64,000 bases of DNA from Polyangiaceae bacterium (GCA_009780955.1 WQZB01000008.1:13368-77367), one strand, 5' to 3'; positions 36,069-41,723 are shown, counted from the stretch's first letter. The notes: generated by a model not told the origin, from the sequence alone. Program-made: numbers and translations.

Positions 36069-36126
36069 AAATGCCGCGGTCGGGCGCCATGAATGGCGCC
36101 CCCTACCCGCAGCCGCCGCGGTCTAG
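36069..36126 (-). repeat. REP half-doublet plus type-A right-end remnant (left flank of the acx operon)
   Basis: Reverse complement GTAGGGGGCGCCATTCATGGCGCCCGACCGCGGCATTT (36069-36106), then CGCAGCCGCC-GCGGTCTAG. Confidence 0.8.
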
Positions 36127-36638
36127 TGTTGCGAGTATGATCGTTCTGGAAGCGGCAGCTTAACCCATTCGTTGTAAAACGTTTCGATGTCGGGCTCGAA
36201 ATCGTGCAACACCGGGTACCACGGTGTTGGTGCCTCGACGTCGTGCATGCAGCCGCACCGCGGGCAGTAGTATTCGCGATACACCTGCCAATGAGTATCG
36301 GGCGACATCAGCTCCGGATAAACCTCGTTCATTGCGTCTTCGGTTTCACGCACGTAAACCAAGGCATTGAGTTTCCAGTTTTCGCGATAATCGCCAAAGC
36401 TGTGTCCGCAATCGCACTTCGTTTCCCATTTCTTGGTGTGGTGATCGCTGACAATATACAGGTGGGGACCAAGGGGCAGCACAATGGTGTCTTTCATGCC
36501 GGTTTTGGCCTGCAGCGCTTTGATATACATTTTGAAGCGCTCGCCATCCTTGGGCATGGACAGCATGCGCAAGGTGGTATCCCAGTCCAACCGGCCTTCG
36601 ATCATATGATTGATTTGTTCTTGGGTATACGTACTCAT
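36123..36638 (-). CDS. acxC: Acetone carboxylase gamma subunit
   Basis: LPLGPHL, KCDCGHSFGDYRENWK, REYYCPRCG..DVEAPTPWYPVLHDFEPDIETFY; GGAGA RBS. Confidence 0.93.
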   Translation of the reverse strand: MSTYTQEQINHMIEGRLDWDTTLRMLSMPKDGERFKMYIKALQAKTGMKDTIVLPLGPHLYIVSDHHTKKWETKCDCGHSFGDYRENWKLNALVYVRETEDAMNEVYPELMSPDTHWQVYREYYCPRCGCMHDVEAPTPWYPVLHDFEPDIETFYNEWVKLPLPERSYSQH

Positions 36639-36735
36639 CTTCGTCTCCAAAGTCATTGAATCTTGGTCAATTGGGACGGGCCCGTCCACGACGGGCCAGC
36701 CCCATGGGAAAAAAGGAATCGCGGCCGGCTGGCTA

Positions 36736-39091: not shown

Positions 39092-41254
39092 TCAGTGCGT
39101 GGATTTTCCTTGCGTCTCGCGCAGGTGGAACAAGCGGTGCTTGTCCAAGGTGGTCGCGAAACCATCAGGCACAACGAACGTGGTCGCGTCCGATTCGATG
39201 ATGGCGGGGCCGAAGATCTCGTTGCCAGGTTTGAGCGCCTCCATTTTCCAAATCACTGCATCAAGCCATTTCTTATGGCGGTAGAACTTACGGGTACCGA
39301 GGTGCGCCTCGGCGGGTGGAGTGGGGCCGCCGTCTGGGTCTTCGGGCAGCACCGGTTTTTGCGTGGCGACGGTGCCGCGCATGATGACGCCGGTGACGGA
39401 GAACCCGAGTTCCGGCGAACGCGCGGCGCTTGCATAAACTCGGGCATACGTGGCTTCAAAAGCGTCGGCCATCGCGTCCCAATCACCTTCGCTGGCCGCC
39501 CGATGAATCGGAGAGATGATTTCGAGGTCGTTCAGCTGACCCATGTATTGCATGCGGAAACCAGGGCGCAGGATGACGTCTTTGGCTTCGAAGCCATTGA
39601 TGCGGAATTCCTCGACCACCTTGGCAGTCAGTTCTTCCCATGCCTGCTGAATGGCGCGCGCGGCTTTGCGCTTGTCGTCCGGCGAGCTGTTTTGCGGCAC
39701 CGCCAAGTCGACCGATTTGTCGTAGCGGTATTCGAAGTCGGCGCAGGCGCAACCAAAAGCCGAAAAGCCTGCCGCCCACGCGGGAACCACCACGTCTTTG
39801 AAGCCCAGGCCTGCCGTGTAGCCGTACGTATGTACCGGCCCGGCACCGCCGTAAGAGAAACACACGAAATCGGTCGGACTGTAGCCTTTGGCCGCTACAT
39901 TCGAGCGTAGATATTCGTGCAAGTGCAAATCAAGCAATTCGATCACACCCGCCGCGGCGTCTTCCACGCTCAACCCCATGGGTTCGGCCACTTGCTGCTG
40001 AATATGCCTACGGGCGCGCTCCACATCGAGCTTGATGTGGCCGCCAAGGAAGTTATCGGGATTCAAATAACCCAACACCACATGGCAGTCGGATACAGTT
40101 ACGGTATCAAGACCACTTTCCGGCCAGCACGTACCCACGCGGTAGCCAGCGGAATCCGGCCCAAGTTTGATGGCATTGCTGTACGGGTCGATACGCACGA
40201 AACTGCCCGCGCCCGCGCCCACGGAGTCCATCGTCACCAGCGGCAACGACAGCACTAGGCGCGCCATGTTCGGGTCCGATGCAATGGCAAAACTGCCTTT
40301 CGTAATGAGGGCCATGTCGAACGAGGTGCCGCCAATGTCGCTGCACGCGATGTTGTCGTAGCCAAGCGCTTCGCCGAGAAGCTTGGAGCCGATCACGCCG
40401 CCGATCGGGCCCGAAACGATCGTGCGCGCCAACTCCGACGCCTTCCATGAAATGGTACCGCCGTGCGTGGCCATCACCCGCAGGTCGAACTTGCCGCCAT
40501 GCTTCTTGAAACGATCGCTCACCTTCTTGAGCGTTTGGCGTGACGGTTCCGCCGCATAGGCCTCCAAGATGGTGGTGTTCATGCGGTGGCTTTCCTTGCG
40601 CGCCGGGTAGTAATCGACCGAGGCGAACACGGGCAGATCCTGGTCAAGCTTCTGCAGCTCGCTCTTCGTGATGTCGCGCACCTTGCGCTCGCTCGCGCCG
40701 TTTTTGTGCGACTGAAGCAGGCAGATCACGATCGCTTTGGCTCCGGCGCCTACAAGCTCGCGCACGGCCTCCCGCACTTCGGCTTCGCGCACCGGAATCA
40801 CCACTTGGCCTTGGACGTCGGTGCGCTCGGTCACACCGCGGATGCGCTGCAAGGGCACCAGCGGATCGTCGTACTTATGAGCGTTCAGGTGGATGCGCTC
40901 CTCGAGCGCATAGCCAAGATAGCTTTGCACCGCCCGACCCATTCCGTGCACGTGTTCAAAGCCTTTGTTGCAGAGCAGGCCGACATCGAGTCCTTTGCGC
41001 TGCAGCACACGGTTGAGCATGGCGGTACCGCTGTAAACGCAGGTAACGAGCTCGGGATAAACGCCGTCCACGTCGCGCTGCCAATGCGCCAGCGCGTCTT
41101 GCGAAGAATTGTAGATGGCTAACGATTCGTCGTCAGGATTGCTTTGCGCTTTGCCGACGACGAAACGCCCGTCTTCGCGGACGAAAAAGGTATCGGTCAT
41201 GGTGCCTCCTGCATCGATGCCGAGCACTTGCACCTTCGATTGGGTTGTTTGCAC
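39092..41254 (-). CDS. acxA: Acetone carboxylase beta subunit (hydantoinase A fold)
   Basis: GIDAGGTMTDTF, SGTAMLNR, TIVSGPIGGV, DIGGTSFD, SVGAGAGS, YGGAGP; GTG start behind AGGAGG. Confidence 0.95.
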   Translation of the reverse strand: MQTTQSKVQVLGIDAGGTMTDTFFVREDGRFVVGKAQSNPDDESLAIYNSSQDALAHWQRDVDGVYPELVTCVYSGTAMLNRVLQRKGLDVGLLCNKGFEHVHGMGRAVQSYLGYALEERIHLNAHKYDDPLVPLQRIRGVTERTDVQGQVVIPVREAEVREAVRELVGAGAKAIVICLLQSHKNGASERKVRDITKSELQKLDQDLPVFASVDYYPARKESHRMNTTILEAYAAEPSRQTLKKVSDRFKKHGGKFDLRVMATHGGTISWKASELARTIVSGPIGGVIGSKLLGEALGYDNIACSDIGGTSFDMALITKGSFAIASDPNMARLVLSLPLVTMDSVGAGAGSFVRIDPYSNAIKLGPDSAGYRVGTCWPESGLDTVTVSDCHVVLGYLNPDNFLGGHIKLDVERARRHIQQQVAEPMGLSVEDAAAGVIELLDLHLHEYLRSNVAAKGYSPTDFVCFSYGGAGPVHTYGYTAGLGFKDVVVPAWAAGFSAFGCACADFEYRYDKSVDLAVPQNSSPDDKRKAARAIQQAWEELTAKVVEEFRINGFEAKDVILRPGFRMQYMGQLNDLEIISPIHRAASEGDWDAMADAFEATYARVYASAARSPELGFSVTGVIMRGTVATQKPVLPEDPDGGPTPPAEAHLGTRKFYRHKKWLDAVIWKMEALKPGNEIFGPAIIESDATTFVVPDGFATTLDKHRLFHLRETQGKSTH

Positions 41255-41627
41255 GGAAATGCCTCCTACGAATCTATCTGTAAAAATCAATCAGCACGAC
41301 ATTCGAAAATATTGATTATCAAGAAAACGAATGAGGCACGGACCGTAAGGCCATGGCGATTCCGAGGTAAAGTAGGAAGGTGGATGACGCACCGCGACGG
41401 CGACCCTGCGGAGAGAAAAGAAAGCGAAAGAAGCGGCCTACTCGGCCGTGCCTCAAATGCGTCTCACAATGCAAGTCACACTCGTTGGTCAAGGCTTCGT
41501 TGTTTCATGAGCACCTTTTTGATTTCATAATCTAGCCCAGACGATTCATTGCGCGATTGCGAAATACATGAATTTCTTGACGGATGCATCGGCAGCCCCA
41601 TCAAAGTGTATAATACACATAAATCGC

Positions 41628-41723
41628 GTAGGGGCACCATTCATGGCGTCCGACCGCGGCATTTTGGAATCCGCACCATTGGCCGATTCCGAGGGCGCGA
41701 TGAATCGTATTCGGCGGGCTACG
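41628..41723 (+). repeat. Degenerate REP doublet (right flank of the acx operon)
   Basis: GTAGGGGCACCATTCATGGCGTCCGACCGCGGCATTT...GAGGGCGCGATGAATCG...GGGCTAC. Confidence 0.8.

Follow-up and report, generated by a model that had tools for sequence, protein, structure and literature searches.

The DNA analysed here, referred to as the window, is a 64,000-nucleotide stretch from a Polyangiaceae bacterium (GCA_009780955.1 WQZB01000008.1:13368-77367), in which the genes of an acetone carboxylase operon, acxABC, lie between a CPBP::AIM24 fusion gene and pgsA, with a GTAG-headed REP at either end. The features of this locus are listed below, together with two intact doublets (REPINs) from elsewhere in the window that served for comparison.

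35358-36056, minus strand: pgsA, CDP-alcohol phosphatidyltransferase (Pfam PF01066, E = 2.9e-40), the host gene downstream of the insertion
36069-36106, minus strand: left arm, a REP-A singlet with GTAG head, 8-bp GC hairpin and the first 13 nt of the long spacer of the family
36107-36122, minus strand: junction stretch of 16 nt (ACCGCGGCGGCTGCGG in the orientation of the gene) linking the REP head with the acxC stop
36123-36629, minus strand: acxC, predicted acetone carboxylase gamma subunit (PF08882, E = 7e-54)
36736-39066, minus strand: acxB, predicted Hydantoinase_B-type subunit (PF02538)
39092-41290, minus strand: acxA, predicted Hydantoinase_A-type subunit (PF05378, PF01968, PF19278)
41255-41627, minus strand: region upstream of acxA, single-copy, 373 nt, 47% GC, depth about 26 in metagenome run X1
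41628-41652, plus strand: core of the right arm and REP-A half of its doublet, differing from the family consensus by two substitutions (A41634, T41649)
41653-41689, plus strand: long spacer of that doublet, its first 12-13 nt being the shared tail of the arms
41690-41722, plus strand: inverted REP-B half with degraded outer part, GAGGGCGCGATGAATCG then TATTCGGCGGGCTAC
41719-43023, minus strand: CPBP::AIM24 deletion-fusion (PF02517 and weak PF01987), the host gene upstream of the insertion
43023-43535, minus strand: biotin-carrier gene (biotin/lipoyl domain, PF00364), the first gene of the conserved host string
56909-56975, plus strand: intact REP-A/REP-B doublet, long hairpin of -31.4 kcal/mol (z = -6.5)
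16043-16111, plus strand: intact REP-A/REP-B doublet (fold z = -3.7)

A preliminary description of the locus proposed that the operon had been captured or mobilised through a matched pair of REPs. Its account of the geometry is borne out by the sequence: the arms at 36069-36106 (minus strand) and 41628-41664 (plus strand) are inverted with their GTAG heads toward acxABC, and according to Pfam the block between them consists of acxA, acxB and acxC only, with no integrase or transposase. The left arm reads GTAGGGGGCGCCATTCATGGCGCCCGACCGCGGCATTT as its reverse complement and the right arm GTAGGGGCACCATTCATGGCGTCCGACCGCGGCATTT, the two differing by two substitutions and one indel (three differences). 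The left arm folds as a simple hairpin (z = -1.45) and is cut off against host DNA 13 nt into the long spacer. The right doublet resembles those at 16043-16111 and 56909-56975, and its fold is no better than that of shuffled sequence (z = +0.39); in the alignment its spacer is the canonical one enlarged by an insert of 20 nt, the tail agrees with the spacer consensus of the family over its first 9 nt, and the CTA of its REP-B half is the stop codon of the CPBP-AIM24 gene. The arms, a truncated singlet and a decayed doublet, have no derived characters in common. Two simple ways of pairing them were rejected, namely as split halves of one doublet, since both are A halves and their orientation is wrong, and as terminal inverted repeats of a transposon with target-site duplication, since no clear duplication is present. 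There is a weak resemblance only between TTCGGGCGTGA beside pgsA and GGGGTCGTAG at the AIM24 end. The 16-nt junction at 36107-36122 appears ambiguous in origin, resembling a collapsed type-A MITE end and also the sequence that follows acxC in a contig of the X3 relative and in the donor-like locus L008.

acxABC is a real insertion of a predicted acetone carboxylase operon of proteobacterial type. All three AcxABC subunits are encoded in one operon with Pfam E values of 1e-42 to 1e-105, and the true start of acxA is likely to lie near 41254. The best matches of AcxB are proteins of a Burkholderiaceae-labelled MAG and of metagenomes (91% aa identity) and of Pusillimonas sp. (88%), and none of the best 120 matches carries a Myxococcota label. 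More than 100 proteins match AcxB at 79-91% identity, and many of these bear the name acetone carboxylase alpha, which reflects annotation rather than assays; the sources of close homologues annotate them in the same way. Nucleotide homology to donor-like loci extends from 41267 to 36142 at about 82% and covers the coding part only, acxC being about 84% identical to its counterparts in L008 and L009. Operons of this kind, with the activator AcxR, are of the Xanthobacter autotrophicus/Rhodobacter capsulatus type and are also found in Betaproteobacteria such as Aromatoleum and Thauera. The operon studied here shares with them the order acxA-acxB-acxC, the diagnostic Pfam domains and an amino acid identity of 80-91% to proteins annotated as acetone carboxylase; it differs in its myxobacterial host, in an acxB-acxC spacer that exceeds the spacer of a co-resident variant by about 94 nt, and in lacking acxR, the -24/-12 promoter and any shared upstream element. 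Whereas the donor-like loci L006, L007, L008 and L009 carry acxR and a TGGCATGGG-N-TTTGC promoter, neither the gene nor a promoter of this type was found in the 64-kb window, and the region 41255-41627, in which a terminator-like hairpin lies at 41434-41448, is unrelated to the upstream regions of the donors and contains neither their sigma-54 promoter nor their upstream element. Base composition does not mark the genes as foreign (GC3 of 0.67-0.73 in acx vs 0.64-0.71 in neighbouring genes), deviant composition being confined to the 373-nt upstream region (47% GC).

The genes flanking acx are Polyangia-like, and comparison with relatives agrees with the earlier proposal that the operon interrupts a co-oriented run of host genes. 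AIM24 directly adjoins pgsA in L001, L003 and L004/Labilithrix luteola as well as in 38 of 42 further metagenome relatives, and acx was found in none of these relatives within 10 kb of the locus. That acxABC was inserted follows from this adjacency in relatives, all without acx, and its foreign origin from the 88-91% identity of AcxB to proteobacterial (mostly Burkholderiales-labelled) proteins between Polyangia-like flanks. The comparison spans some distance, as the relatives with empty sites are all at least 16% diverged in the pgsA protein, which is 84% aa identical to that of L001, with no closer relative in a metagenome scan. The biotin-carrier protein is 86% identical to that of L001. 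Of the L001 proteins, the CPBP::AIM24 fusion has kept residues 9-192 of CPBP and 345-523 of AIM24 but has lost the TPR part, and it is 56-59% identical to the relative vs 84-86% for neighbouring genes; the PALP gene of the conserved string has also been lost in the lineage of the window. The preliminary description had asked whether a single REP doublet marks the empty site. None of the 38 AIM24-pgsA junctions contains a GTAGGGG head, and the empty junctions of L001 and L004, read directly, show no REP doublet. Two further relatives, X3 and X4, at about 91-95% nt identity, match the window as far as 36070 and then stop, one base from the end of the tail. The X3 relative has a different REP at the same boundary, with its head toward pgsA, and X4 offers a possible empty site that rests on 30 nt.

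In both arms and in five further copies in the window the GTAG head leads into a short GC-rich palindrome, and all of these copies are intergenic or overlap stop codons; REPs of the A/B type occupy about 5 of roughly 55 intergenic gaps there. The 13-mer GACCGCGGCATTT had been described as private to the two arms. This holds for exact matches within the 64-kb window, where it has these two sites only, but not beyond it, where the tail is common. In X1, the metagenome run that holds the source organism and in which single-copy depth is about 25, depth over 36068-36103 was 1,439-2,576 at a likeness of at least 85% and about 1,050-1,400 at 97% or more, and since the matches begin at 36068/36069 the tail is included. 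Depth over the arm is thus 40-100 times that of single-copy sequence and is spread over dozens of contigs, which gives a family of roughly 40-100 copies, a number estimated from metagenome unitig depths rather than from a genome census. Among the X1 contigs aligned to the left arm, 17 of 43 enter the long spacer of the right doublet, which is the consensus of other genomic copies, and the whole 81-nt right doublet was found again in at least six long contigs of single-copy depth. Units of the left-arm type on long contigs of such depth show 1-3 differences in 35 nt, and several copies are only one difference in 35 from the left arm, compared with three for the right arm. The arms are therefore no matched pair: one is half of a doublet, the tail is family-wide, being found in most of the near-identical copies, and other copies are closer. 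By these depths and contigs GACCGCGGCATTT is common among genome-wide REP copies, the very observation that the preliminary description had named as contradicting capture.

The family is an abundant, lineage-specific GTAG-REP/REPIN, and it is absent from the syntenic 22 kb of the nearest relative. A GTAG head is typical of RAYT-associated REPs, and the association of REP elements with RAYT transposases was reportedly noted by Nunvar et al. in 2010; it is documented for both REPs and REPINs (Bertels & Rainey 2011, PMC3116915; PMC3337134). The copies described here agree with these elements in having a GTAG head before a GC-rich palindrome, an intergenic copy number in the tens to hundreds, inverted doublets folding as one long hairpin (those at 56909 and 16043, not the arms), compensatory differences between the halves (GCGCC...GGCGC in A, GCGCG...CGCGC in B), remnants in the form of singlets and decayed doublets, and sites just downstream of genes. 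They differ in that no RAYT was found in the 64-kb window and in the long-spacer subtype with its 20-nt spacer insert. In addition, REPIN families are usually lineage-specific, whereas the exact 21-nt REP-A core was found by a contig scan in genomes of many phyla, with no copy from the window's own genome among the matches listed. In the literature, singlet REPs and doublets that have decayed count as REPIN remnants without mobility (PMC3116915, PMC3337134), and under the REPIN model both arms are therefore of this kind.

Capture or mobilisation of acxABC by a RAYT, an HUH Y1 transposase, acting on the head-inward GTAG REPs in a REPtron-like manner, the operon standing where the transposase gene would be, is very unlikely. 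RAYT genes are flanked by inverted REPs or REPINs (PMC3337134), a geometry that the locus shares, as a gene block bracketed by inverted REPs of the same type with their heads toward the cargo and, on the acxC side, close to it (16 nt); moreover, the GTAG head and the REPIN hairpins elsewhere in the window make a RAYT in the genome plausible. However, the block is a metabolic operon rather than a transposase gene, the flanking copies, a singlet and a non-folding decayed doublet, are defective forms both held to be immobile, and the arms are no more alike than random members of the family: the tail supposed to set the pair apart occurs throughout the family, no derived character unites the arms, and each has closer copies elsewhere. 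Nor was a sign of mobility seen in the assembled contigs. A RAYT motif scan found none in the 64-kb window or in about 100 REP-bearing loci, and a tblastn search of the window with an approximate E. coli RayT query gave no match. The cargo is single-copy with a depth of about 25, no excision or circle joint was visible in the assembled contigs of X1, and the relatives' empty sites are without REP. Candidate joints linking 36069-36102 to 41662-41683 were rejected as excisions; all such arm-to-arm joints have sides of 20-34 nt only and are explained by other REP loci. We know of no described case of RAYT-mediated transposition of cargo, PMC3116915 and PMC3337134 included. Capture of the operon by REPs, which if true would to our knowledge be the first instance of a domesticated REP/RAYT moving metabolic cargo, is thus not supported.

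It is extremely improbable that the arrangement is an artefact of assembly in which acx, from elsewhere in the genome or from a co-resident strain, was threaded between AIM24 and pgsA by way of the REPs. At least one other acx variant is present in the same sample at a depth of about 38-43, public unitigs of X1 and X2 (Logan contigs) do not cover 36099-36254, and the right junction crosses a 28-nt stretch common to many doublet copies. Yet the acx unitigs have a depth of 25-28, the same as the flanks (23-26). One unitig (41177-41705) links the 5' end of acxA and its upstream region to a host-type long-spacer doublet, which places acx in a REPIN-bearing genome. The repeats, furthermore, are only 35-81 nt long, less than the length of ordinary reads or of large assembler k-mers, and have private variants on both sides.

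We consider it probable that acxABC was acquired by ordinary horizontal transfer at a decaying locus and that the arms are bystander remnants of REPINs. The operon would have arrived without the sigma-54 activator acxR and without a promoter of the donor type, and would have been inserted in an uncultured Polyangia bacterium of the termite gut, within a conserved co-directional string, immediately upstream of pgsA and either at the 3' end of the AIM24-like gene or beside it. Decay of the string is seen in the loss of its PALP gene and of the TPR part of AIM24. The arms occupy the two new intergenic gaps, the right one as a complete doublet of the long-spacer type whose B half has decayed and the left one as a singlet keeping 13 nt of the spacer; REPs are usually located downstream of genes. 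As the inverted orientation and shared tail of the arms are explained by family membership, they probably imply neither a special relationship between the arms nor a role in moving the operon. The locus has much in common with small genomic islets that were introduced by illegitimate recombination and later colonised by host repeats, namely a lineage-confined synteny break, foreign affinity, host repeats at the borders and the absence of an integrase, tRNA or att site; it is unlike them in giving no compositional signal (GC3 equals that of the host) and in having borders unusually close to the ends of the REPs.

The bystander model leaves a single feature poorly explained, namely that both truncated REP ends coincide closely with the boundaries of host and insert. 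Counting against it, both arms stand exactly where host-like sequence changes to insert, and independent later REP insertions must accordingly have hit very near both junctions. REPs of the same type in both gaps around one operon would be uncommon by chance, given about 5 of roughly 55 gaps, and the AIM24 stop codon falls within the B half. It is nevertheless quite unlikely that a REPIN/RAYT system or REPIN-REPIN recombination integrated or relocated acxABC with the REP ends as borders of the cargo unit.

In another explanation, which we regard as unlikely, the REPs were a landing pad or passive substrate for recombination, or moved with the fragment, with no dedicated REP transposition. Either a REPIN cluster already stood at the AIM24-pgsA junction and received the operon, or a fragment of roughly 5.65 kb came from elsewhere in this or a sister REPIN-bearing genome and ended inside two REPINs, in mid-spacer on one side and in the middle of the B hairpin on the other, transfer being by illegitimate or short-homology recombination. 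Both ends of the insert are indeed truncated REPs touching host DNA: the left arm stops at 36069/70, where the host similarity of X3 and X4 ends, and the B half on the right breaks off after GATGAATCG, beside the AIM24 stop. Singlets can arise by insertion of DNA into REPINs, with REPs as insertion targets (PMC3116915), and the different REP of X3 at the same boundary suggests a REP-occupied, remodelled site. On the other hand, with two A halves and a single B the arms do not complement each other as parts of one doublet, the 38 junctions in relatives are all without REP, a second acx locus or donor site was not seen, and the boundary positions derive from short unitigs of low-depth relatives. 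Arrival of the REPs before, with or after acx is compatible with the sequence in all three orders.

With acquisition and bystander REPs as the preferred reading, what is left standing is a clean, datable entry of a predicted proteobacterial acetone carboxylase operon, its regulator missing, into a termite-gut myxobacterium at a point inside a conserved host transcription string, where the new intergenic gaps are crowded with lineage-specific REPIN remnants and mini-elements. Such an acquisition with bystander repeats would not surprise a specialist, and it may be of use for annotation and for work on the way in which repeats colonise the surroundings of recently acquired DNA. As all genes are co-oriented, the most likely mode of expression for acxABC and pgsA would be read-through, starting either in the host string or in the AT-rich region upstream of acxA, and we infer that the REP hairpins act at most as stabilisers of mRNA ends or as attenuators.

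The acxC, acxB and acxA genes are the sole genes between the two REP arms, and the arms are present in inverted orientation with their GTAG heads inward, both as claimed in the preliminary description. The relevant features are:

36069-36106, minus strand: left arm, reverse complement GTAGGGGGCGCCATTCATGGCGCCCGACCGCGGCATTT
36123-36629, minus strand: acxC, diagnostic Pfam domain(s)
36736-39066, minus strand: acxB, diagnostic Pfam domain(s)
39092-41290, minus strand: acxA, diagnostic Pfam domain(s)
41628-41664, plus strand: right arm, GTAGGGGCACCATTCATGGCGTCCGACCGCGGCATTT
16043-16111: inverted A/B doublet
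22824-22844: single B
56909-56975: inverted A/B doublet
REP variant A: hairpin GCGCC-ATTCAT-GGCGC
REP variant B: hairpin GCGCG-ATTCAT-CGCGC

For the host genes around the cargo, the CPBP/AIM24 neighbour has relatives only in Polyangia, i.e. in a Polyangiaceae MAG and Labilithrix luteola. Three syntenic loci of relatives (L001, L003, L004) share the order biotin carrier, PALP enzyme, CPBP protease, TPR-AIM24, pgsA, small ORF, FliQ-like, TetR and EpmA-like, with AIM24 and pgsA 0-78 nt apart. A search with pgsA gave 80 further loci, of which 42 had enough upstream sequence to judge; AIM24 lies directly upstream of pgsA in 38 of these, as in the three syntenic loci, and acx genes occur in none of the 42. 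The window's acxABC is co-directional inside this host string, in which AIM24 of the relatives runs straight into pgsA, so that insertion of the cargo into a co-oriented host run is confirmed and the case is stronger than from the window sequence alone. The REP doublet expected at the empty site was not encountered, as a GTAG REP is present in 0 of the 38 AIM24-pgsA junctions.

AcxB shares 91% identity with metagenome proteins and Burkholderiaceae-labelled ones, 88% with a protein of Pusillimonas sp., and ~80-85% with many further proteins labelled as Beta- or Gammaproteobacteria. In the closest acx loci, nucleotide homology (~82%) is confined to the coding block (41267-36142), and the sigma-54 activator gene acxR, not found in the window, lies beside the operon. 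Two donor-like loci carry a strong sigma-54 promoter, TGGCATGGG-N-TTTGC (TGGCATGGGnTTTGC), ~90-100 nt before acxA (at ~515 in L008 and ~5525 in L006), and a third, L005, has only a weaker match (~3700). An upstream element, GACGTTTSATATTCGGYCG-GCGTAGGAATTT, common to all three upstream regions aligned, is probably an AcxR binding site. Neither promoter nor element occurs in the 373 nt upstream of acxA in the window (41255-41627), a single-copy stretch of 47% GC that is unrelated to the donor-like loci and contains a terminator-like hairpin at 41434-41448. As GC3 is equal in the acx genes and the host genes, the case for transfer rests on synteny and phylogeny and not on composition. By these comparisons, the window's acxABC appears to be a horizontally acquired acx operon, a known kind of thing, with its insertion confirmed.

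Two termite-gut metagenome runs with the window's organism (X1, X2) also contain a second acx variant at a depth of ~38-43, which is without 94 nt of the window's acxB-acxC spacer (36643-36736) and has many differing sites in the acxC 3' end (36195-36237); a related operon is thus present in a second gut organism or strain. Public unitigs of both runs leave gaps at 36099-36254 and ~37920-38210, probably because other acx variants tangle the assembly graph, and the first gap leaves the left junction without independent confirmation. That the acx block is an assembly chimera is nevertheless very improbable, since acxA with its upstream region and a host-type long-spacer doublet lie on one and the same unitig (41177-41705), and the acx unitigs and both flanks have equal depth.

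For the local REP family, the core was found in 7 copies in the window at up to 3 mismatches, against 0 expected, with a constant head GTAGGGGCG preceding the two hairpin variants; several further GTAG-headed palindromes are present. Between the two arms there are two substitutions and one additional G. Alignment of the window copies shows that the right arm is the A half of its own A/B doublet, whose inverted B half starts at 41690 and is degraded (GAGGGCGCGATGAATCG then TATTCGGCGGGCTAC). Nine nucleotides at the start of the tail (GACCGCGGC) agree with the spacers found in the other window doublets (GACTGCAGGC, GGGCGCGGC). In the right doublet a 20-nt insert lengthens this canonical spacer, and the left arm has just the first 4 nt of the insert (ATTT) before host sequence. 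The intact doublets fold as long REPIN-type hairpins (z = -6.5 and -3.7). Shuffled sequences fold as well as the right doublet (z = +0.39), and the left arm forms a plain 8-bp hairpin. The motif ACCGCGGC stands on both sides of the left REP-A, as tagACCGCGGCGGCtgcgg before the head (36107-36125) and gACCGCGGCATTT after the hairpin (36069-36081). The head-side stretch resembles a collapsed type-A MITE end (CCGCAGCCGCC + GCGGTCTAG) as well as what follows acxC in L008 and in an X3 contig.

The 13-nt tail, proposed as a private mark of the pair, has exact matches within the window only at the two arms. Its wider frequency was taken from depths in public termite-gut metagenome runs in which 90% of the words of the region are present. 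In X1 the depth is ~25 over unique parts of the region and 1,439-2,576 over 36068-36103 at ≥85% likeness; at ≥97% it is ~1,400 over the left-arm hairpin and ~1,050 over the tail, the latter by arithmetic on bins. The left arm matches 43 X1 contigs, with matches starting at 36068/36069 and so including the tail, and the unit recurs with 1-3 differences in 35 nt on long contigs whose depth (25-26) is that of the organism itself. Seventeen contigs run past the tail with the consensus ...TGGAATCCATACCATTGGCCGATCCC..., the right doublet's long spacer, and at least 6 long single-copy contigs (summed depth 500-890) match all 81 nt of the right doublet. These depths and the contigs continuing into the long spacer show that the tail is where a long-spacer doublet subtype begins, an abundant one of roughly 40-100 copies. 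The nearest relative (L001/L112) has a depth of 34 in the same sample (L112, 9500-10500) versus 25 for the window's organism; no GTAGGGG head occurs in its 22 kb of syntenic DNA, and the copies are therefore creditable to the window's lineage. The same relative (pgsA 84% identical in amino acids) has a type-A MITE in common with the window. The tail is thus common among REP copies, the outcome that the preliminary description had named as refuting its model; other copies resemble the left arm more closely than the right arm does, and the idea of a matched pair does not hold.

The arms are REPIN remnants, a known kind of element. In published work on REPINs, singlets and non-folding doublets are regarded as non-functional remnants, and the hairpin-forming doublet as the mobile unit (PMC3116915, PMC3337134); the left arm here is a singlet and the right a non-folding doublet. 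The cargo is at single-copy depth, and no motif or match of a RAYT, the REP-associated transposase, was found within the 64-kb window. Every candidate joint between the arms in the assembled contigs has sides of just 20-34 nt and belongs to another REP locus. With these remnants, a single-copy cargo and no REP at the relatives' empty sites, REP-guided capture or mobilisation of the operon is not supported.

A weaker alternative, in which the acx block inserted into REPIN sequence or moved together with it, is kept alive by the close coincidence, on both sides, of the truncated REP ends with the points where host similarity ends. In close relatives from two further runs (X3, X4) the match over pgsA ends at 36070, a single base away from the end of the tail, and the right B half overlaps the AIM24 stop codon. 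At the same boundary the X3 relative has a different REP, head towards pgsA, and the X4 relative has non-REP sequence (gene strand ...LVPAGARLIVRA*, TGA overlapping GTG), 30 letters that are possibly the AIM24 end and hence an empty site. These points fall short of a dedicated REP-guided capture, and participation of REPIN sequences in the integration is considered unlikely. The 11 nt before pgsA on the gene strand (TTCGGGCGTGA; 36060-36070) resemble the presumed ancestral stop region of AIM24, as present in X4, and more weakly the present AIM24 end (GGGGTCGTAG; 41719-41730); this very short likeness may be a duplication at the insertion point.

The PALP gene between the biotin-carrier and CPBP genes was lost in the window's lineage, unlike in all close relatives. 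CPBP residues 9-192 are fused to AIM24 residues 345-523 with the TPR part deleted (41719-43535 versus L001 7471-11572), and the fusion, 56-59% identical to the L001 proteins versus 84-86% for flanking genes, may be decaying. The next gene downstream, encoding a lipoprotein, contains a 144-bp MITE (35141-35289) that is absent from the X3 relative (~94% identical), where the empty site shows as a clean skip of 147 nt and 7 nt fit on both sides. Gene loss, fusion and MITE together indicate a decaying and rearranging region, and it is plausible that the locus is a tolerant place for foreign DNA and repeats.

For the expression of acxABC, which encodes a predicted acetone carboxylase and has neither regulator nor donor-type promoter here, transcription would enter from upstream host genes or the AT-rich 373-nt region. 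It would serve pgsA only by passing the left REP, whose hairpin would then not terminate strongly; this hairpin lacks a U-tract and was not flagged by the terminator scan. In E. coli, REP hairpins stabilise the 3' ends of upstream message, and the REP hairpins may do so here.

The exact 21-nt REP-A core GGGGCGCCATTCATGGCGCCC (56912-56932, 36082-36102) was also seen in more than 100 loci among the matches listed, where a GTA head nearly always precedes it and an inverted GGGnnnGATGAATCnnnCCCCTAC partner often accompanies it, in genomes labelled Armatimonadota, Omnitrophota, Acidobacteriota, Chloroflexota, Zixibacteria, Ignavibacteria, Pantoea/Erwinia and Myxococcales. Sharing of one identical core across phyla is odd for REPIN families, for which lineage-specific occurrence and vertical inheritance are the usual description; either the transfer of RAYTs or convergence imposed by a RAYT recognition constraint could explain it.
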